Below, piece after piece: positions 1-15,335 of a stretch of DNA of 64,000 nt; the stretch's first letter is position 1, and each line of letters starts with the position of its first letter. The DNA is from an uncultured Erysipelotrichia bacterium (lineage in GTDB: Bacteria; Bacillota_I; Bacilli_A; CAYWJS01): positions 1,957 to 65,956 of the forward strand of contig CAYWJS010000003.1 in assembly GCA_964458855.1 (NCBI GenBank). Reading direction: 5' to 3'. The notes under the pieces were generated by a model. The model saw only the letters and a program-made list of their open reading frames with translations. It searched no databases and was not told where the DNA came from. The translations under genes and the position numbers were made by a program.

Positions 1-293
1 CTACAGACAGTCATTATATTGATATTAAATCTGAGTTAGCAGACTGTAATAATTCCTTAATTCCTATAGTCCATAAATGGGCTGAATTTAATAAAGATTT
101 ACTTAGATGTTATTTCATTGATTGGAAAAGCTGCTATATTAACCAGAATGTATTGGATGGAACTCAATGGGAGCTTAATGTTACATTTGATAATGGTACA
201 ACAATTAAGCGTTATGGCAGTAATGCCTATCCACCCCATTGGGAAAAATTGATTGCGGCGTTTCATAAATACGGATTGCCTATAATTAGATGA
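1..293 (+). CDS. Partial CDS (C-terminal fragment, 5' end outside window), hypothetical protein; stop TGA at 291-293, 16 nt upstream of mcrB
   Basis: Open frame from window edge translating ...NGTTIKRYGSNAYPPHWEKLIAAFHKYGLPIIR*; same strand and GC-richer composition as mcrBC; no family recognised. Confidence 0.4.
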   Translation, partial: TDSHYIDIKSELADCNNSLIPIVHKWAEFNKDLLRCYFIDWKSCYINQNVLDGTQWELNVTFDNGTTIKRYGSNAYPPHWEKLIAAFHKYGLPIIR

Positions 294-309
294 TTAGAGG
301 TGAAAAGAT

Positions 310-2919
310 ATGGATTCAAATATTCAATTAAAAAATCAATTTGCCTGGACTTCTTTTTATATGGAGTTTGCTGATAAACTGTTGCCATATAAAAATAATC
401 GTTCGCACCTTCTTGAGTTGTTAAAAGACGTTTATAACGATTTAGGATTGCGCTATCCGTTTATAGAAAAGGACGGTATGCTGATTGACGATATTTGCCC
501 GTTTACCGTATTTGGCTGTTTTAATAAAGGGATTTCCAATGAAAATCGTATTGCTTTGATGAAAGGCATTGGCAGTAAACTCGGTGTTAAGACTTCAGTG
601 CCTACAGAATTTGACGGCATTCCGGTACTTAACAACATGAAGGCTTGGTTTTTCGCCGGTAAAAGTGAGCGAAAAGAAGATGACATTCCCAACCTATGGG
701 ACACATTTGAAGCCGGATTAAACTATGCAGACAATCCGTCAGAAGTCTCCAAGTCAGCATTTATAGCCTGTTATGATAAAGTAAGAAAGCAATTTGGAAT
801 TAAGTGGAATTTAACTATGGGACTGTATTGGATACGCCCCTTTTCCTACTTAAACCTTGATGATCGTAACAGAAGTTATCTGACACAAGATAGCTCTCCT
901 TATTATGCAAGTATTACTAAAATTTCTAACTTAAAGCAGCCTCCAAGTGCAAAAACCTATTTAGATCTCATTACTGTATGTAAAGAAATCTTTGCAAAGA
1001 GCGACAGTCCTTATCACAGTTTTCCCGAACTGTCCCACATAGCATGGGCTACAACAACTTCGGGAGCACGGAATAACAATATCACTTCAACCGCTAATAA
1101 AAAAATAGGCTGGATTTTTCAAGGTAATCCTAAATACTATGATGTTATGGGTGCTATTAAGGATCTTGATGTTGTAACATGGAGCGTAAAGCAATACCAA
1201 AACCAGATCAAAAAAGGCGATCGCGCTTATATATGGGTTTCAGGCCCTGAGGGTGGCATTGTTGCTTCAGGAGTTATTCTCTGTGACCCAGAAATCAGGG
1301 AAAATAATGAGCCTGACCCCTATGATCTTTCTGGCGATATAAGTACAGGAGAACGTCTTGTCGTAGATATTGAACTTACCCAAAAAATAACGGATGCTGT
1401 TATTAAGAGAGAAGATTTCTTAGCGGATGAACGCCTAAAAAACGCAAATATTATTTCTTTCCCAAATGTAACAAATTCTAGATTGACTTCCGAGCAGGCC
1501 GATGTTATAGACAGCATTATCAACGGCACCTATATACGTATAGAGCCAAAGAATTCAGATGAAACATCAGCCCCTTTAAGACGATACTGGATTTATGCCC
1601 CCGGCAGCAATTCTTCCAAATGGGAAGAGTTTTACTCTCAAGGAATTATGGGTATTGGATGGGATGAATTAGGCGACCTTAAACAATACCCCAGCAAAGA
1701 TGCCATGAAAGCCAAAATGAAGGAACTGTATGGCGCTGAATACTCATATATTAACTCAGTCCTTGCCACATGGCAGTTTGCTAATGAGATTAAAGTCGGC
1801 GATATTGTTTATGCAAAAAAAGGCATGCATAAAGTAATCGGGCGTGGCATAGTTGAATCCGACTATATTTTTAACGCAGATCGCGATGAGTATAAACATA
1901 TTCGTAAAATCAAATGGACACATAACGGGGAGTGGGAACACCCGGGACAAGCTGTCATGAAAACCCTTACCGACATAACTCCTTATACTGATTATGTACA
2001 AAAACTAGAAGCGCTCTTTATTGATGATGACTCTGTAGATATTGAAGAAAAAGAAATTGTGTATGAGTCCTACACCGAAGATAACTTCCTCAATGAAGTT
2101 TTCATGGATGCCGAACGTTACAATACTTTGGTTAATCTCTTAAAAACCAAGAAAAACATCATCCTGCAAGGAGCGCCCGGCGTTGGTAAAACTTTTGCTG
2201 CCAAAAGACTTGCTTTTTCCATAATGGGGCAAAAAGATACAAGCCGCGTTATGATGGTTCAATTCCATCAAAGTTACAGCTATGAAGACTTTATTATGGG
2301 ATTCCGGCCAACCAAAGACGGATTTGAGCTTACCCCCGGGCCTTTTTACCAGTTCTGCAAAACAGCACAGGATGACGATGAACGGGATTATTTCTTTATC
2401 ATTGACGAAATTAACCGCGGCAATGTAAGCAAAATTTTTGGTGAGTTGATGATGCTTATAGAAAAGGAAAAACGCGGTGAAAAACTACGCCTTCTTTACT
2501 CCAACGAGTTATTTTCTGTTCCCAAAAATCTCTACATTATCGGTATGATGAATACTGCCGACCGCAGCCTTGCCATAATCGATTATGCTTTGAGAAGAAG
2601 ATTCGCTTTCTTTGAACTCGAGCCTGCTTTTGACTCTGAAGGATTTAAAAAAATTATACAGCAAGCAAACAACCCCAAGTTTAATGCCCTGGTTGAGCAA
2701 ATTAAAGCTTTGAATGACTTTATCTGCAAGGATGAATCCCTTGGCAGTGGGTTCAGAATTGGACACAGTTATCTGTGCACAAATAGTGAGGTAACCGACG
2801 AATGGCTGGAATCCGTTATTAAGTATGAATTGTTGCCTCTTTTAAACGAATATTGGTTTGACGAACCATCCAAAATAGAACAGTGGACAAAAAGGCTGAG
2901 TGAGGTTTTATATGATTAG
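310..2919 (+). CDS. mcrB: McrB-like AAA+ GTPase subunit of a type IV (modification-dependent) restriction system, with a long N-terminal extension carrying two PUA-like (EVE/YTH-type) reader domains
   Basis: ORF track 869 aa; Walker A GAPGVGKT (nt ~2170-2193), McrB signature MMNTADRS, RBS GAGGTG before ATG; N-terminal segments with W/GD/G-rich beta-barrel-like pattern. Confidence 0.85.
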   Translation: MDSNIQLKNQFAWTSFYMEFADKLLPYKNNRSHLLELLKDVYNDLGLRYPFIEKDGMLIDDICPFTVFGCFNKGISNENRIALMKGIGSKLGVKTSVPTEFDGIPVLNNMKAWFFAGKSERKEDDIPNLWDTFEAGLNYADNPSEVSKSAFIACYDKVRKQFGIKWNLTMGLYWIRPFSYLNLDDRNRSYLTQDSSPYYASITKISNLKQPPSAKTYLDLITVCKEIFAKSDSPYHSFPELSHIAWATTTSGARNNNITSTANKKIGWIFQGNPKYYDVMGAIKDLDVVTWSVKQYQNQIKKGDRAYIWVSGPEGGIVASGVILCDPEIRENNEPDPYDLSGDISTGERLVVDIELTQKITDAVIKREDFLADERLKNANIISFPNVTNSRLTSEQADVIDSIINGTYIRIEPKNSDETSAPLRRYWIYAPGSNSSKWEEFYSQGIMGIGWDELGDLKQYPSKDAMKAKMKELYGAEYSYINSVLATWQFANEIKVGDIVYAKKGMHKVIGRGIVESDYIFNADRDEYKHIRKIKWTHNGEWEHPGQAVMKTLTDITPYTDYVQKLEALFIDDDSVDIEEKEIVYESYTEDNFLNEVFMDAERYNTLVNLLKTKKNIILQGAPGVGKTFAAKRLAFSIMGQKDTSRVMMVQFHQSYSYEDFIMGFRPTKDGFELTPGPFYQFCKTAQDDDERDYFFIIDEINRGNVSKIFGELMMLIEKEKRGEKLRLLYSNELFSVPKNLYIIGMMNTADRSLAIIDYALRRRFAFFELEPAFDSEGFKKIIQQANNPKFNALVEQIKALNDFICKDESLGSGFRIGHSYLCTNSEVTDEWLESVIKYELLPLLNEYWFDEPSKIEQWTKRLSEVLYD

Positions 2920-3946
2920 AATTCAAAATATATACTATATGCTTGCTTATGCTTTTCATGTCTTAAATGAAGAAGGCTATAAACAAGTAGCAACTGAAGA
3001 TTTCGAATATACTTCTGATTTATTTGCAGCAATTCTTTCCAAAGGTATTGCCAGCCAAATCAAAAGGGGATTAAGTAGGGAGTATATCAGCAAAACAGAA
3101 GCCGTTATTTCACCTACAGGTAAAATCAATGTCTCAGCCTCCATTGTACAGAATTCCATGCTTAAAAAGAAACTGGTCTGTGATTATGATGAGTTTACAG
3201 AAAACAGTTACTTGAATAAAATACTCAAAACCACTGCAATGCTTTTGATACGCTGTCCGGAAGTATCAACGCAGCATAAAAAAGCCTTAAGGAAAACAAT
3301 GCTTTATTTCAGTAATGTTGATGAAATAAATCCGCGCAGAATTCAATGGTCGAGTATCAGATACCATAGGAATAATGCCACCTATAAAATGCTGCTGAAT
3401 ATCTGCTATCTAGTTATCGAAGGTATGCTAATGACCGAGCAGGACGGTTCCCGAAAGTTGGCCCGCTATGTAGACGACCAGCGTATGCCCAGGCTTTATG
3501 AAAAATTTGTGTTGGAATATTATCGTAGGCATTATCCCCAGTTTAATGCTTCATCCACCATTATTGACTGGGATGTCGACGGTGGAGAAATAGAATATTT
3601 ACCTACTATGAAATCAGATATAACTCTTCGATATCGGGGCAAAACACTCATTATAGACACAAAATACTATAAGAAGACCATGCAGATAAACAGCTTGTTC
3701 AACAGCCGAACAATCCATTCTCACAATTTGTATCAGATATTTACTTATGTAAAAAACATGGATTTAGCTCGTTCGGGAAATATAAGCGGCCTTTTGCTTT
3801 ATGCCAAAACTGATGAAGATATTGTACCGGACAACGATTATATTATCGGCGGTAATCGTATTAGCGTTAAAACTTTGGACTTGAATACTGACTTTTCCAA
3901 CATATCAAAACAGTTGAACGCAATAGTAGAAAAGATGTTATTATAA
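2912..3946 (+). CDS. mcrC: McrC-like nuclease subunit (PD-(D/E)xK) of the McrBC system
   Basis: ORF track 2900..3946 starts at GTG; more likely ATG at 2912 with RBS GAGGT, overlapping mcrB stop (ATGATTAG); N-terminal IRIQNIYYMLAYAF typical of McrC; catalytic-like motif IIDTKYYKK. Confidence 0.8.
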   Translation: MIRIQNIYYMLAYAFHVLNEEGYKQVATEDFEYTSDLFAAILSKGIASQIKRGLSREYISKTEAVISPTGKINVSASIVQNSMLKKKLVCDYDEFTENSYLNKILKTTAMLLIRCPEVSTQHKKALRKTMLYFSNVDEINPRRIQWSSIRYHRNNATYKMLLNICYLVIEGMLMTEQDGSRKLARYVDDQRMPRLYEKFVLEYYRRHYPQFNASSTIIDWDVDGGEIEYLPTMKSDITLRYRGKTLIIDTKYYKKTMQINSLFNSRTIHSHNLYQIFTYVKNMDLARSGNISGLLLYAKTDEDIVPDNDYIIGGNRISVKTLDLNTDFSNISKQLNAIVEKMLL

Positions 3947-4002
3947 TCATGTGTTTTATCGCATAAAGATAATAAGCAGTAATACATCCATCCTGTATCC
4001 TC

Positions 4003-4025
4003 AACCCCCTATAAAAAAGGGGGTT
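4003..4025 (+). terminator. Hairpin downstream of mcrC (aaccccc-loop-gggggtt), putative intrinsic terminator
   Basis: Inverted repeat read directly; T-tract after the stem is weak. Confidence 0.35.
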
Positions 4026-4279
4026 ATCTAATCTGGTAACTCAACTATTAATTTTCAGGGTGGTTGATATGTTCCCGCAAACAATAAAAATAAGGGTTTC
4101 CTGACATTGCCTCATTCGGCAGATCGGCCTCGAGAAAAACTAAATGTCTGGAAACCCTTTATTTACAAGCATTTTTAACTTTCTATTTATCTACCCTTGT
4201 CATCAATACCACGCACTCAACATGGTATGTAAATTTATTTTCACCAATTTTTGTAATTATTACGCGTGATAAAATACAT

Positions 4280-4564
4280 TCATTCGCTACCATCTATTGA
4301 ATCTTTAATAATATCTATATAATTCTGTTCTTTTATATCTGTATATAATACTTCTTTCTTTTCTCCAATATCAGTTGGTAAAAGATTAGTATTATTTGTT
4401 AAATATATTTGGGCTTGCTTTACTAATAGCTCTTCATTCCTACGAAAAGCATTAAAACGATTCTTTTGAATAAGTGATGAAAAACTTGGGATTGCTATTG
4501 CAAGAATCAAACCCAGAATAACAATAACTGCAAGAAGTTCAATTAAAGTAAAACCTCGACTCAT
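4280..4564 (-). CDS. Prepilin-type N-terminal cleavage/methylation domain protein (type IV pilin or ComGC-like pseudopilin)
   Basis: 94 aa; MSRG|FTLIELLAVIVILGLILAIAIPS class III signal/hydrophobic helix; strong RBS AGGAGG; ends with TGA stop. Confidence 0.7.
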   Translation of the reverse strand: MSRGFTLIELLAVIVILGLILAIAIPSFSSLIQKNRFNAFRRNEELLVKQAQIYLTNNTNLLPTDIGEKKEVLYTDIKEQNYIDIIKDSIDGSE

Positions 4565-6196: not shown

Positions 6197-7981
6197 TTAT
6201 TCAGATTCATCTTCTGAAATTTCTTCCCCTTCTTCTGGAAATTCTGGTATTTCTTCTTCTGGGGCAAGGGCAATTTGAACTCTTAATGACGCACCTTTTA
6301 CAATATTTGTTCCTGGAGGTCTGTCTTGCCAAATAACAGTATCTGGTTCATGCTCTAATGTTTCAACATATTCAATACTTAGTTTCAACTCGTAATCTTC
6401 AGCAAATGCTTTTACCGCTTCTTCCGTCCAACCCTCTGCCATCATATCAGGGTATTTTAAAATCACATCTGGAATATATAAAGTTATTTCATCACCTGGT
6501 TTTAATAAGGTTCCTGGCTTTACAGATTGCCTAATAATTAAATCTGGATTAATACTTTTATCTTTTACTTCTTCTTTTTCAATAAAAACATTCAAACCAT
6601 ATATTTCCTCAAGTCTAACTTTTACAACATCATAATCTTGACCAACATAATCTTCAATTTCAATAGTTAGTTTTCCTTTTGATTCATAAATAATAACTTT
6701 TGTATTTTTCTTTACTGTTCTACCAGCTCGTGGACTAGTTCTTGTTACTAATCCCTTTTCAATTGTTTCGCTGTATTCTGATATAACTTCAAGTTCAACA
6801 TCAAGACCAGCATTTATCAATTTACGCTCCGCTTCAACAACACTCATTCCTGAAACATCAGGTACAACTACTTCTGAAACTTTAAAAATAATTGGAACAA
6901 TAAAGAAAATTAATAATACTAAAGCACATAATCCAGCAAAAATACTTCCTAAAATAATTATTGTTTTTTTATCTTGATTTCTCAAAACTGGTCCCCTACT
7001 TTCTAAAGTTTTTGTCTCTTCTGTTTTTGTTTGTTCTTCCTTTGAAACTTCTTTTTCTTTTTGAATTTTCTCTAATTCTTGTATTAAATCTTTTGTTTTT
7101 CTATTTGTATCAAAATATGCATATTCATATCTATTTTCATTTTCTCTTTGTTCATCAAGAACTGTTTTTAAGTCTTCAAACATTTCTTTCGTTCTATTAT
7201 AGCGATTTTCCTCATTTTTCGCGCAAGCTTTTAAAATTACATTTTCTACACTTTGCGGAATTGCAGGATTTATTTCTCTTACACTTGGAATTGGTTCATT
7301 AATGTGTTTCATGATAACATTTATTGGACTATCTCCATCAAATGGAAGTCTTCCTGTTAAAAGTTCAAACATTAAAATTCCCAAAGAATAAATATCAGAT
7401 TTAATATCAATTTTATCACCTGATGCACGCTCTGGTGCCATGTAATAAACTGAGCCCATTACTGAATCTGTTCGTGTAAGTTTTGAAGCATTTATTGCAA
7501 CAGCTAAACCAAAATCAGTAATTTTTACCGTTCCATCTTTTTGAATAATAATATTTTCTGGTTTTATATCACGATGAACTATTAAAGAAGAGTGAGCTTT
7601 AGAAAGTCCATCTGTCAACTGTTGCATAATGTCAACAACTTCCGTAATAGTTAAAGCTCCTCGCTCTTTAATCAACTTTTTCAATGTTTTTCCTTCAATA
7701 TATTCCATAACAATGTAATAATGACCATTATCTTCTCCGACATCGTAAATATCTACGATGTTTTTATGATGGAGGCTACTTGCTGATAAAGCTTCTCTTT
7801 GAAATCTTTTTAAAAAGTCTTCATTTGAAGCAAGTTCTCCTCTAAGAATCTTTATTGCTACCTTGCGATTTAAAACAGTATCATTTGCAAGGTAAACATT
7901 CGCCATACCACCTTCACCTATTAATCTTAAAATTTGATAACGTTCATTAATCATTGTTCCAATTACAAGCATATTACTCAC
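6197..7981 (-). CDS. prkC: Ser/Thr protein kinase with extracellular PASTA repeats (PrkC)
   Basis: 594 aa; kinase motifs HRDIKPENI, DFG, APE; single TM; C-terminal PASTA-like repeats. Confidence 0.9.
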   Translation of the reverse strand: MSNMLVIGTMINERYQILRLIGEGGMANVYLANDTVLNRKVAIKILRGELASNEDFLKRFQREALSASSLHHKNIVDIYDVGEDNGHYYIVMEYIEGKTLKKLIKERGALTITEVVDIMQQLTDGLSKAHSSLIVHRDIKPENIIIQKDGTVKITDFGLAVAINASKLTRTDSVMGSVYYMAPERASGDKIDIKSDIYSLGILMFELLTGRLPFDGDSPINVIMKHINEPIPSVREINPAIPQSVENVILKACAKNEENRYNRTKEMFEDLKTVLDEQRENENRYEYAYFDTNRKTKDLIQELEKIQKEKEVSKEEQTKTEETKTLESRGPVLRNQDKKTIIILGSIFAGLCALVLLIFFIVPIIFKVSEVVVPDVSGMSVVEAERKLINAGLDVELEVISEYSETIEKGLVTRTSPRAGRTVKKNTKVIIYESKGKLTIEIEDYVGQDYDVVKVRLEEIYGLNVFIEKEEVKDKSINPDLIIRQSVKPGTLLKPGDEITLYIPDVILKYPDMMAEGWTEEAVKAFAEDYELKLSIEYVETLEHEPDTVIWQDRPPGTNIVKGASLRVQIALAPEEEIPEFPEEGEEISEDESE

Positions 7982-8720
7982 CTACACCCATTTCAATATA
8001 GGCAACTGAAATATTATCAGTGCCACCTTTTTTATTAGCAGTTTTAATTAAATACATAACTTTATCATCTATTTCTAAATTTGCAGTTAAGATATTGTAG
8101 ATTTCACGATTAGTTAGCATCTCTGTTAAACCATCACTACAAAGTAAAAGTCCATCTATTTCTTTTGATACCTCAAAAATATCCATATTTGACTTTAGTC
8201 CTGCCCCCAGTGCTCGCATTAAGACGTTTTTTTGCGGATGATTATGAGCACCTAAGCTGTTAATTTCACCACTTTGAACAAGCATATTTACTAAAGTATG
8301 ATCTGTTGTAACTTGAAGAATATCTTCATCTTTTAAAATGTAAGCCCTACTGTCACCAACATTACCTACTATAATATAATCACGAGTAATAATGGCAGCA
8401 ACTAAAGTTGTTCCCATTCCTTCACAACGGGGATCAAGCTCAATTCTATCAAGGATTAAGTTAGTTATCTCTTTTGCTTCTTGTTTTAGCCAAGCAGCAG
8501 CTTGCTTTTTATCACCAATTGATTCTAATTTTCCCCATTTGCGACTAATATTGCTAATTGCTATTTCAGATGCAATCTCTCCAGCATTATGTCCTCCCAT
8601 TCCATCAGCAACTGCCATTAAATATTCACCAGATAAATTTTTTACAATAATAACACTATCTTCATTATGATTTCTTACTTTTCCAGTATCAGTCGCGTAA
8701 AAAAAATCCACATCAACCAC
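7974..8720 (-). CDS. prpC: PP2C-family Ser/Thr phosphatase (PrpC/Stp)
   Basis: 248 aa; ADGMGGHNAGEIAS motif; 8-nt overlap with prkC as in the conserved operon. Confidence 0.9.
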   Translation of the reverse strand: MVDVDFFYATDTGKVRNHNEDSVIIVKNLSGEYLMAVADGMGGHNAGEIASEIAISNISRKWGKLESIGDKKQAAAWLKQEAKEITNLILDRIELDPRCEGMGTTLVAAIITRDYIIVGNVGDSRAYILKDEDILQVTTDHTLVNMLVQSGEINSLGAHNHPQKNVLMRALGAGLKSNMDIFEVSKEIDGLLLCSDGLTEMLTNREIYNILTANLEIDDKVMYLIKTANKKGGTDNISVAYIEMGVGE

Positions 8721-9755
8721 CTATTTCCTCGTTTCATTAATTCTTAATTGACCACAAGCAGCATTAATATCAGATCCCTTTTCTCTTCTAATTGTAGCAC
8801 TAATTCCGTGTTTTTTCAAAACATCATAAAATTCTAAATACCTTGTTTTTAATGCTCGCTTAAAACCGGTTTCAGCTACATCATTATATGGTATTAAATT
8901 AACATAAGCATTAAGCCCCGAAATTAGCTTTGCAAGTTCTTTGGCATGTTCTAAAGAATCATTAATATCATGAAGTAGAATATATTCAAATGTTACACGC
9001 CGATTAGTTTTTTTAATATAATAACGAACTGCCTTTATAATTTCTTCTATTGGATACACTTTATTTATTCTCATTAATTTATTTCGAATTTCATTATTTG
9101 GAGCATGAAGACTAATGGCAAGATTTACTTGCAATGGAAAATCACTAAACTCATAAATCTTTGGTACAATGCCACATGTTGAAACTGTTATATGACGTGC
9201 TCCAATACCTAAACCTAAAGGATTATTTATAATTTTTATAAATTTCAAAACATTTTCATAATTATCAAAAGGCTCACCAATTCCCATAATAACAACATGT
9301 GAAAGTCGTTCATTATTTTTTACTAACTCTTTTTGAACTTTTATTACTTGTTCTACAATTTCCCCTGCTTTTAAATTTCTTACCTTTCCTTTTAATCCAC
9401 TCGCACAAAACGCGCATCCCATATTACAACCAACTTGGGTTGAAACACAAACGCTTAAACCATAATTATGACGCATTAACACAGTTTCTATTAATGAATC
9501 ATCTGACAGTCTAAATAAGTATTTTTCTGTTTTATCTTCCGACACCATTTTTTTTACAAGTTCTAGTGATGAAATATAAAAATTTTCTTTTAATAAATCT
9601 ATTGTTTCTTTTTTTACATTTTTAATTTCCTCGTAAGAACCAATAAAATTTTGATAAAGCCAATTATATAGTTGTTTAGCAACAAATTTTTTGCTTTCTC
9701 TATTTAATAAAAACTCTTCTAAGTCTTCTAAAGTTAAGCTATAAATACTCTCCAT
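8721..9755 (-). CDS. rlmN: 23S rRNA/tRNA adenine-C2 methyltransferase RlmN (radical SAM)
   Basis: 344 aa; CNMGCAFCASG radical-SAM cluster motif; position upstream of prpC-prkC. Confidence 0.9.
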   Translation of the reverse strand: MESIYSLTLEDLEEFLLNRESKKFVAKQLYNWLYQNFIGSYEEIKNVKKETIDLLKENFYISSLELVKKMVSEDKTEKYLFRLSDDSLIETVLMRHNYGLSVCVSTQVGCNMGCAFCASGLKGKVRNLKAGEIVEQVIKVQKELVKNNERLSHVVIMGIGEPFDNYENVLKFIKIINNPLGLGIGARHITVSTCGIVPKIYEFSDFPLQVNLAISLHAPNNEIRNKLMRINKVYPIEEIIKAVRYYIKKTNRRVTFEYILLHDINDSLEHAKELAKLISGLNAYVNLIPYNDVAETGFKRALKTRYLEFYDVLKKHGISATIRREKGSDINAACGQLRINETRK

Positions 9756-13814: not shown

Positions 13815-14250
13815 TAACTTTTTTACTCCTAATTAAGTAATTTATTCCCTCTCCTATTAGTCCTAAAATTATACCAATTGCAAGAACAAATAAATATGAA
13901 ATAATACTTGTTAAATCCGCCCAACCAGTATCATTATTTTTTATTAAAATTATAAAATAATAAGTAATACTAATTACATTTGTAAGCATAAATACAGGGG
14001 AAAAAATCTCCATTCCAAAATAACCAAATGAAGAAATTCCCGAAATAACAATTGAAAGTAGGAAAAAAGATAAAATATTTTGAAAAGATAACTTAGGGAT
14101 TAAAATTCTTTGCCCTATTATTAAAGCTAAAAAGTTAATGATAAAAACAAGTAAAAAAACATATAACCATTTTTTTGATTTTGGTTTTGGAAGCAAAATC
14201 ATCATAATTACCCTCCTTAAATTTATTATGTCAATATCTAAAAATATCAT
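13807..14250 (-). CDS. Small multi-pass membrane protein, hypothetical
   Basis: 147 aa, four hydrophobic helices; no family recognised. Confidence 0.4.
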   Translation of the reverse strand: MIFLDIDIINLRRVIMMILLPKPKSKKWLYVFLLVFIINFLALIIGQRILIPKLSFQNILSFFLLSIVISGISSFGYFGMEIFSPVFMLTNVISITYYFIILIKNNDTGWADLTSIISYLFVLAIGIILGLIGEGINYLIRSKKVND

Positions 14251-14309
14251 AACACAACATAATATTATTTTCTTTTTTTATGCATAAAAAAATAACTAAG
14301 ATAACTTAG

Positions 14310-15335
14310 TTATTTTTCGAAATACTCAACACCTATTGCTTTTCTTACATTATTTAATGTTTCTTGTGCTACTTTTCTTGCTTTTATGCTTCCTTCTAAA
14401 AGTATTTTATATACTTCATCGATATTTTGTTCATATACTTTTCTTCGTTCACGAATTGGTTTTAATTCTTCTTGAAGTACTTCATTTAAGTATTTCTTAA
14501 CTGTAACATCACCTAATCCACCTTTTTTATAATGCGCTTTTAATTCTTCAAGTTTTTTTCTATCTTTACAAAAGGCATCAAGGTAAATAAATACAGGGTT
14601 ATTTTTTACATCACCAGGATCTTCAATTCGAATATGATTTGGATCAGTAAACATACTCATTACCTTTTTTTCAATTACTTCTGGTTCATCAGCAAGAAAG
14701 ATTGCATTTCCAAGTGACTTGCTCATTTTTGCTTTTCCATCAATTCCAGGAAGACGACGAGCTGTTTTGTTTTCTGAAAGAATTGCCTCAGGCATTATTA
14801 GCGTTTCCCCATAAATTGAATTAAAGGCATGCACAATTTCTCTTGTCTGTTCAATTAAAGCAAGTTGATCTTCCCCAACTGGAACATATTTTGCACCAAA
14901 TGCTGTTATATCAGCTGCTTGACTTACTGGATAACAAAGAAAGCCAATAGGAACACTTTTTTCAAAACCTCGTTCCTTTATTTCCGTTTTTATTGTTGGA
15001 TTTCTTTGAAGACGCGAAACAGTCACTAAATTCATATAATATGTTGTAAGTTCAGTAAGTTCTGGAATTTGTGATTGAATACAAATTGTTGTCTTTTTTG
15101 GATCGATTCCTACTGCTAAGTAATCTAAAGCAACTTCTAAAACATTTTCTTTAATCTTTTCAGGATTTTTTGCATTATCAGTTAATGCTTGCATATCTGC
15201 AATAAGTATAAATTGTTCAAATTTTCCTGATTCTTGAAGTTCTAAACGTTTTTTTAAAGAACCAACATAATGTCCAAGATGAAGACGTCCTGTTGGTCTA
15301 TCTCCAGTTAAAACTACTTCTTTTTTCTTACTCAT
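14310..15335 (-). CDS. trpS: Tryptophan--tRNA ligase
   Basis: 341 aa; class I HIGH-type motif GRLHLGHY and KMSKS. Confidence 0.9.
   Translation of the reverse strand: MSKKKEVVLTGDRPTGRLHLGHYVGSLKKRLELQESGKFEQFILIADMQALTDNAKNPEKIKENVLEVALDYLAVGIDPKKTTICIQSQIPELTELTTYYMNLVTVSRLQRNPTIKTEIKERGFEKSVPIGFLCYPVSQAADITAFGAKYVPVGEDQLALIEQTREIVHAFNSIYGETLIMPEAILSENKTARRLPGIDGKAKMSKSLGNAIFLADEPEVIEKKVMSMFTDPNHIRIEDPGDVKNNPVFIYLDAFCKDRKKLEELKAHYKKGGLGDVTVKKYLNEVLQEELKPIRERRKVYEQNIDEVYKILLEGSIKARKVAQETLNNVRKAIGVEYFEK

Follow-up and report, generated by a model that had tools for sequence, protein, structure and literature searches.

Does the open reading frame (ORF) that ends just before mcrB in this piece of DNA encode an additional component of the McrBC system? 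The window, by which we mean the whole 64,000-nucleotide (nt) stretch analyzed, comes from an uncultured Erysipelotrichia bacterium (contig CAYWJS010000003.1) and opens with an uninterrupted plus-strand frame of 96 codons (positions 3–293, stop codon TGA at 291–293), followed by mcrB and mcrC. An earlier note on this DNA took the frame for the end of an unknown gene in an operon with mcrBC, and possibly for an accessory component. Our comparison with related islands points to a different answer: the frame is very probably the 3' stump of a ~200-codon gene of unknown function, cut by a 3,364-nt deletion, a pseudogene rather than a working part of McrBC. The two features at issue are as follows.

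Positions 3–293, plus strand: probable stump of a zinc-ribbon/DUF6438-like gene, codons 109–204 of a 204-codon parent, with its TGA at 291–293.
Positions 294–309, plus strand: 16-nt spacer from the stump's stop codon to mcrB, containing a Shine-Dalgarno-like AGAGGTG for mcrB at 296–302.

In a protein search the 96 residues matched other proteins, with an expect value (E) of 1.6e-56 to P0001, so the open frame at 3–293 is not due to chance. Its source is a real protein-coding gene distinct from both mcrB and mcrC, and in this the earlier note was right to keep it apart from mcrBC. The proposed spacing also held, with the mcrB ATG at 310 and the gap at 294–309, as did the operon-like arrangement: the stump and its relatives lie on the same strand as mcrB, 16–25 nt upstream of it, with no terminator in between. 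No terminator-like site was found in window 1–310, and thus none between stump and mcrB. Rfam gave no match between the two, and RNA structure over 200–330 was unremarkable (z = 0.67).

The evidence for a deletion comes from close relatives of the island. Exact look-ups of the window McrB and McrC sequences returned a single metagenome contig, L001, which is 100% identical to window 1–4041 and reaches 1,144 nt further upstream. The same island was found at 96–99% identity in three genome bins and five metagenome contigs. When L001 was compared to the island of bin L020, L001 1–1148 matched L020 1813–2961 (98.6%) and L001 1148–5185 matched L020 6326–10360 (97.8%). By these two collinear alignments, L001 is the L020 island minus 3,364 nt. 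What is missing comprises, in L020, the 3' two-thirds of a gene for a methyltransferase of 794 amino acids (aa), a gene for a 473-aa Type I-like specificity subunit, and codons 1–108 of the small gene whose remaining codons form the window ORF. The intact L020 methyltransferase has HSDR_N_2, N6_Mtase and Eco57I domains and matches the PADLOC model MTase_I at 717 bits; its truncated counterpart in L001 is a 263-aa ORF matching HSDR_N_2 at 6.5e-25. Parsimony favors deletion as the direction of change, since L020 has the two genes complete and L001 has them cut at a single point.

At the junction (slash marking the breakpoint) the left parent reads ...CGCATCTA/TGGCG and the right parent ...GTGGCAT/CAGACAGTC, while L001 and the window read ...CGCATCTA joined to CAGACAGTC. 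The pentanucleotide GCATC is common to both parents beside the breakpoint. Two features at the extreme left of the window belong to this junction.

Positions 1–3, plus strand: junction bases CTA, contributed by the methyltransferase gene to the left of the 3,364-nt deletion; CAT in the intact small gene.
Positions 2–22, plus strand: end of the truncated Type I-like methyltransferase ORF, six codons (YRQSLY) and TGA at 20–22, out of frame with the stump.

The earlier note had called the ORF partial. It is indeed truncated, but the window edge is not the sole cut: the gene itself is truncated, with bases 1–3 lying at the deletion junction. One could still suppose that the gene is intact in the source genome, cut merely by the edge of the window, and that L001 is a deleted variant from another population; after all, 293 nt is all that can be seen, and two contigs with 99% identical McrB (L041 and L059) carry the gene intact. 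The first three bases make this extremely improbable. They are CTA in the window as in L001, where L019, L020, L021, L041 and L059 have CAT, and all intact copies align to the window from base 4 only, which corresponds to codon 109. Since bases 1–3 fit the methyltransferase side and the intact copies begin at base 4, the window itself carries the junction. Moreover, over 4,041 nt the window and L001 agree at 100%, while no intact island exceeds 97.5% identity to the window.

Four points weigh against the stump interpretation. The window shows only three junction bases, leaving the truncation resting mainly on L001. L001 is from a different sample and ends short of the host flank. Only 2–3 substitutions in 288 nt separate the stump from intact copies, so that its own decay is too slight to gauge. 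Finally, the frame in L001 is open for 120 codons from an ATG, and from sequence alone a chimeric peptide is possible.

The last point deserves fuller treatment. On L001 the stump frame is open upstream to ATGs at 1075 and 1108, which would yield a chimeric ORF of 120 or 109 aa overlapping the 263-aa ORF out of frame. A protein of 109–120 aa, composed of 13–24 out-of-frame methyltransferase residues and the C-terminal 96, might then be made and act as an accessory to McrBC. A gene caller does call this ORF, and it retains the most conserved family motifs, DGTQW and GSNAYPPHW. Nonetheless we consider such a protein very improbable. No Shine-Dalgarno motif precedes either ATG, the whole zinc ribbon and half of the predicted sheet are gone, and nonsense or frameshift mutations affect the same region in other cassettes whose mcrBC is intact. 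The deletion is also recent, given the 97.8% identity to L020 and the 0–1 synonymous changes in the stump.

The stump interpretation supposes the following history. The ancestral order would have been an HTH_26 regulator, the Type I-like methyltransferase (794 aa), the specificity subunit (473 aa), the small zinc-ribbon gene, mcrB and mcrC, all six on one strand with gaps of at most 54 nt and some overlaps. A single 3,364-nt deletion would then have fused the truncated methyltransferase gene to codon 109 of the small gene, itself of 200–204 codons. If so, the DNA 5' of window base 1 should read ...ATTTTCGCAT before CTACAGACAG, continuing into the HSDR_N_2 methyltransferase fragment and the HTH_26 gene. 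Remnants at deletion junctions in restriction and defense islands look much the same: two neighboring genes cut at one breakpoint with a short shared sequence (here GCATC), the flanking system intact and the base composition foreign. Nothing about the window is unusual in this respect; it is the ordinary fate of cargo.

Recovery of the parent gene, a check proposed in the earlier note, took several steps. A first protein search with the 96 residues gave only five clusters, 88–168 aa long, with mutually unrelated N-termini. Reading the DNA of these five in three frames showed the similarity running on upstream, past frameshifts and stops, into a CPRCGS...LGGC...HHCxxC zinc-ribbon motif. A search with the frameshift-corrected reconstruction then found intact relatives of 190–204 aa (up to 81% identity), from which the alignment A3 was built, and an intact 204-codon gene was found upstream of the same mcrBC. 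Invariant positions in A3 include C11, C14, C58 and C61, the four cysteines of an N-terminal zinc ribbon (CPxC...HHCxxC). Intact proteins start M-x-RRICPxCGS; in L020 the ribosome-binding site AAGGTGA is followed by a TTG start. The stump is 97–98% identical to the matching residues of the intact L020 and L021 copies, and it holds the family motifs of the C-terminal domain: W..F...L..CY..DW, DGTQW and GSNAYPPHW.

An AlphaFold2 model of the intact relative P0155, made with A3, had a mean predicted local distance difference test score of 91 and a predicted template modeling score of 0.83. It places the zinc ribbon at about residues 1–65, strands at 76–85, 90–96 and 103–109, a helix at 131–142, strands at 162–170 and 175–181, and a helix at 188–197. 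Absent from the stump are the four-cysteine ribbon, the first three of six sheet strands, an own start codon and a ribosome-binding site. We infer from the model that the stump cannot fold into the native domain.

The parent family is sizable. Profile search of 1.84 billion cluster representatives gave 709 proteins at E ≤ 0.001, mostly of 130–210 aa, some with a signal peptide instead of the ribbon and one fused to WYL-WCX. The C-terminal domain of the family matches PHROG 24571, of unknown function, at 1e-9 to 1e-15 (1.4e-9 for the window fragment). Its match to DUF6438 (PF20033) is weaker: the window fragment scored 14.2 bits (E = 0.052), and fragment and close relatives together ranged over 13–18 bits, where the gathering cut-off is 30. 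Only one protein, the distant member P0008, passed that cut-off (32.8 bits). The motifs DGxQW and GSNxYP are common to DUF6438, PHROG 24571 and the parent family; the two models, both of unknown function, differ in lacking the zinc-ribbon fusion typical of the ~200-aa subfamily. Among intact copies the ratio of nonsynonymous to synonymous substitution rates (dN/dS) was 0.10–0.17 with dS near 1, indicating that the parent family is under purifying selection. The window copy is a degenerate member of this existing, uncharacterized family related to DUF6438 and PHROG 24571.

Other searches added little. PADLOC-DB 2.0 had no match for the fragment or for five intact members, and Pfam and NCBIfam gave only sub-threshold DUF6438 and generic zinc-ribbon noise for the fragment and intact relatives. 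No match was found by tblastn of phage genomes with intact P0174, and a plasmid search with P0155 gave four partial, weak matches only. Foldseek found nothing significant among viral structures and nothing at E ≤ 0.001 in the Protein Data Bank (PDB), and a profile search of PDB sequences returned nothing below E = 0.2. An apparent likeness to Mago nashi (PDB 1hl6_B; a flat antiparallel sheet with two backing helices) is at the level of fold only, with 15% sequence identity, and just half of that fold is present in the window stump. No papers came up in literature searches on DUF6438 or on a bacterial Mago-like fold. Thus the profile and structure searches advised in the earlier note did connect the gene to PHROG 24571 and DUF6438, but they gave no significant structure match and no function.

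Two longer family members may be informative about role. In P0022 (413 aa) the zinc-ribbon and DUF6438-like module is fused to WYL and WCX, and P0020 (557 aa) has a long N-terminal extension. WYL domains are ligand-sensing regulators, frequent in defense loci. By analogy, the fusion in P0022 hints at a regulatory or sensor role for the module.

Decay of the small gene turned out to be recurrent. Besides the window deletion, we observed 5' deletions reaching three other endpoints, given here as L019 positions: 6055, with fusion to the HTH (helix-turn-helix) gene, in L015 and in L025 from an Acholeplasmatales bin (L025 has in addition an internal deletion and an in-frame stop); 6201 in L006–L014 and L016, which share a TGA at a conserved Trp and a frameshift; and 6239 in L024, from an Alkalithermobacter thermoalcaliphilus isolate. 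A frameshift between ribbon and domain was found in L002, L003 and L004. In L044 all that remains is an N-terminal stretch of 45 residues, 67 nt away from mcrB. Outside the McrBC context, L005 is a 2,463-nt deletion relative to L022. Between the copies L006 and L016, which share the nonsense mutation, dN/dS was 0.74.

Two other readings of these loci were rejected. In L005 the ORF might have been the C-terminus of the large upstream helicase, but the helicase has its own stop codon, and L005 derives by deletion from L022, which has a separate, intact small gene. In L016 the TGA might have encoded Trp, as in the source translation of P0003; the contig has two in-frame TGAs. L006 shares that in-frame TGA, which replaces the conserved Trp of TQWELN, and its neighboring genes are called at full length, which fits TGA as a stop. 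The TGA common to L006 and L016 is therefore most likely a shared nonsense mutation rather than recoding.

We also noted structural peculiarities in two of the decayed loci. L002 has a 292-nt direct repeat at 95% identity (8700–8991 and 14146–14437) flanking a ~5.2-kb mcrBC island in a Clostridiales DTU086-type context. The repeat is part of a DUF4846 gene and no integrase is visible; insertion of the island seems to have duplicated the end of the target gene or carried a copy of it along. L003 1–565 is inverted relative to L002 9142–9706, a segment 5' of the small gene that includes a methyltransferase-gene remnant. The two contigs are otherwise 99.7% identical and L003 ends at that point, so this 565-nt inversion could be real or an assembly artifact.

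Survival of mcrBC did not follow that of the small gene. Both mcrB and mcrC are full length in L006, L023 (= L004) and L024, each with a broken small gene; L002 has its mcrC divided between two ORFs. Conversely, L029 (Tepidibacillus infernus, 6606–6700) has an intact small gene, but of the mcrB that follows it just the first 17 codons remain (MESNIQSKNQFAWTSFY). Each therefore persists without the other. The intact mcrBC of L006, L024 and the window, all beside a broken small gene, hints that mcrBC may not require it.

Co-occurrence was surveyed from both sides. GTDB genomes were scanned with A3 for loci seeded from the small gene. The intact 204-codon gene, its stop 16–18 nt before the mcrB ATG, was found in bins L019–L021 (Caldicoprobacterales, Christensenellales and unclassified Clostridia), and the gene is also intact upstream of mcrB in L036, L037 and L038 and, in the McrB-seeded sample below, in L041, L042, L050, L051 and L059. 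Small-gene copies of at least roughly 75% identity mostly adjoin this mcrBC (L019–L021, L036–L038), with two exceptions among close copies: L029 (74%, mcrBC deleted) and L039 (73%, no mcrBC). Distant intact copies (39–74% identity) are not beside mcrBC. No McrB or McrC was found in the flanks fetched (up to 6–8 kb) for L017, L018, L022, L026–L031, L039 and L040; L017 and L018 are short contigs. Neighbors in these places are varied: a TetR regulator and an ADP-ribosylglycohydrolase in L039, LacI and EamA in L040, a helicase-HD-NERD island in L022, a serine recombinase, DUF3841 and Fic in L026, methyltransferases in L028, and a Type ISP fragment in L017. L029 has a Rep-like and an RloB-like gene on the opposite strand. 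In gene order, the L022 island encodes a protein of 1,378 aa, a helicase of 1,617 aa (DEAD/Helicase_C/MZB), a protein with an HD domain, one of 394 aa, the small gene product and a NERD-HRDC protein; it and its L005 derivative look like an uncharacterized defense locus.

In the other direction, 80 metagenome loci seeded from McrB, a sample unbiased with regard to the small gene, were scanned with a hidden Markov model (HMM) of A3. Grouped by McrB identity to the window, they gave the following.

At least 92% (5 loci): small gene intact in all five, ending 25 nt upstream of mcrB by HMM coordinates.
79–87% (13 loci): remnants in L043, L103, L047 and L044, that of L044 being the N-terminal piece only.
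79–87%, no remnant: L045, L046, L061, L083 and L091.
79–87%, uninformative: L057 and L089, with only ~110 nt upstream.
79–87%, partial-length matches, none found: L094 and L097.
44–74% (62 loci): small gene in none of the 62 within 5 kb.

The intact gene thus stands upstream of mcrB only at McrB identities of ~92% or more, plus one further locus, and this distribution makes the neighborhood specific to one recent cassette lineage. Co-occurrence with mcrBC, on which the earlier note had asked its proposal to be judged, was complete among the closest loci (5 of 5) but failed at 44–74% (0 of 62), and distant homologs live elsewhere. The proposal of an accessory McrBC component is not supported: what the window has is a 5'-truncated stump, mcrBC stays intact where the small gene is broken, and the association is not general. 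Judged by this distribution, the small gene is a lineage-specific neighbor, probably not a component that McrBC needs.

The stump could matter to mcrBC other than through a protein. One further feature bears on this.

Positions 281–286, plus strand: perfect TATAAT hexamer 24 nt before the mcrB start codon, lacking a good -35 element and conserved in L020.

By its sequence this hexamer could be a weak internal promoter of mcrBC, although a consensus promoter scan of the plus strand of 1–310 called nothing, the hexamer included. A cis role would have the stump kept for the expression of mcrBC, as promoter (281–286), as 5' untranslated region, or as an upstream frame bringing ribosomes to the mcrB start. 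All cassettes conserve the 16-nt spacer, AGAGGTG and the final ~40 nt of the gene, and four independent 5' deletions, found with the C-terminal query, all end before codon 109. However, the query that brought up those loci was the C-terminal 96 residues, and longer deletions are invisible to such a search. The McrB-seeded L044 keeps only the opposite end of the gene, and five loci at 79–81% McrB identity have no remnant at all. We regard selection for a cis role as unlikely, and it is in any case compatible with the coding sequence being a pseudogene. Under the stump interpretation, the remnant would be transcribed passively in the leader of the mcrBC mRNA, starting at the upstream HTH/methyltransferase promoter or at a weak internal promoter; it would give no functional protein, and mcrBC would work without it. 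Serving as a transcribed mcrBC leader is most likely all that the stump does.

If the intact gene has a partner, the restriction-modification (RM) genes upstream are a candidate. At every mcrBC-linked locus with an intact small gene, the covered upstream DNA encodes RM genes. Full-length methyltransferase and specificity genes were found in L019–L021, L036, L041, L042 and L051, the specificity gene only in L059 (where the contig starts), and partial matches only in L050. Wherever the RM genes are gone, the small gene is broken. This joint loss is mostly trivial, one deletion taking both; in L002, though, the deletion spares the small gene and a separate frameshift kills it. Furthermore, L020 and L036 carry different RM modules within the same frame of HTH_26, RM module, small gene, mcrB and mcrC. 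It is conceivable, but quite doubtful on these associations, that the intact parent, with its zinc ribbon and Mago-like platform, is a third player, an adaptor or regulator linking Type I-like methylation to EVE-McrBC. If it were, the small protein might tune McrBC to tolerate the island's own methylation; loss of the methyltransferase would make the small gene dispensable and lead to its decay, and the window would be one such event.

The specificity subunits themselves vary widely, at 30–99% identity. Among L019, L020, L021, L041, L042, L051 and L059, islands that are otherwise 96–99% identical carry specificity subunits only 30–68% identical to that of L020, and the L021 specificity gene is conserved in its C-terminal half only. 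Swapping of target-recognition domains would be expected to leave this pattern.

The remaining features of the island in the window are as follows.

Positions 310–2919, plus strand: mcrB, intact, 869 aa, with the precomputed architecture DUF8425-EVE-DUF8426-AAA_5-McrB_lid (AAA_5 at 7e-24, EVE matched).
Positions 2900–3946, plus strand: mcrC, intact, overlapping the end of mcrB (PF10117 at 3e-35).
Positions 3947–4225, plus strand: right end of the island shared with other genomes; alignments with L020, L021 and L024 stop at 4224–4225, where guanine-plus-cytosine (GC) content drops to host level.

Like the canonical two-gene McrBC of the E. coli K-12 type, the system has an AAA_5 McrB-type protein, here with an EVE reader domain, and McrC downstream; the small gene is homologous to neither and accompanies one narrow McrB clade only. 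A published McrBC census (PMC11090510) gives the EVE-McrB fusion as the commonest EVE fusion, and a term search of it found no mention of DUF6438. McrB residues 427–539 (Pfam DUF8426, between EVE and AAA_5) match the PADLOC candidate models PDC-S02 at 2e-18, placing a related domain in stand-alone candidate defense proteins as well. The right boundary at ~4225 abuts a minus-strand ORF of 94 aa (window 4225–4564) with the prepilin-type N-terminus GFTLIELLAV, and beyond it lies a host cluster of rpe, rsgA, a Ser/Thr kinase and a PP2C phosphatase.

GC content is 0.33 in the stump region and 0.34–0.42 in mcrBC, against 0.20–0.32 in the host flank past ~4200, marking the whole block of 1–4200 as foreign to its host. 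The ~8.5-kb island occurs at 96–99% nucleotide identity in bins of different clostridial orders and in the Alkalithermobacter isolate. By these signs the island is horizontally acquired and decaying modularly, with mcrBC kept and its neighbors lost. The window ORF warrants neither annotation as a gene nor a place as a new accessory of McrBC. As a deletion scar, it dates the loss of a neighboring Type I-like methylation module from a horizontally acquired island. Its parent family, with ~700 cluster representatives, purifying selection and a confidently predicted fold, is an uncharacterized and modest lead, tied only loosely to McrBC.
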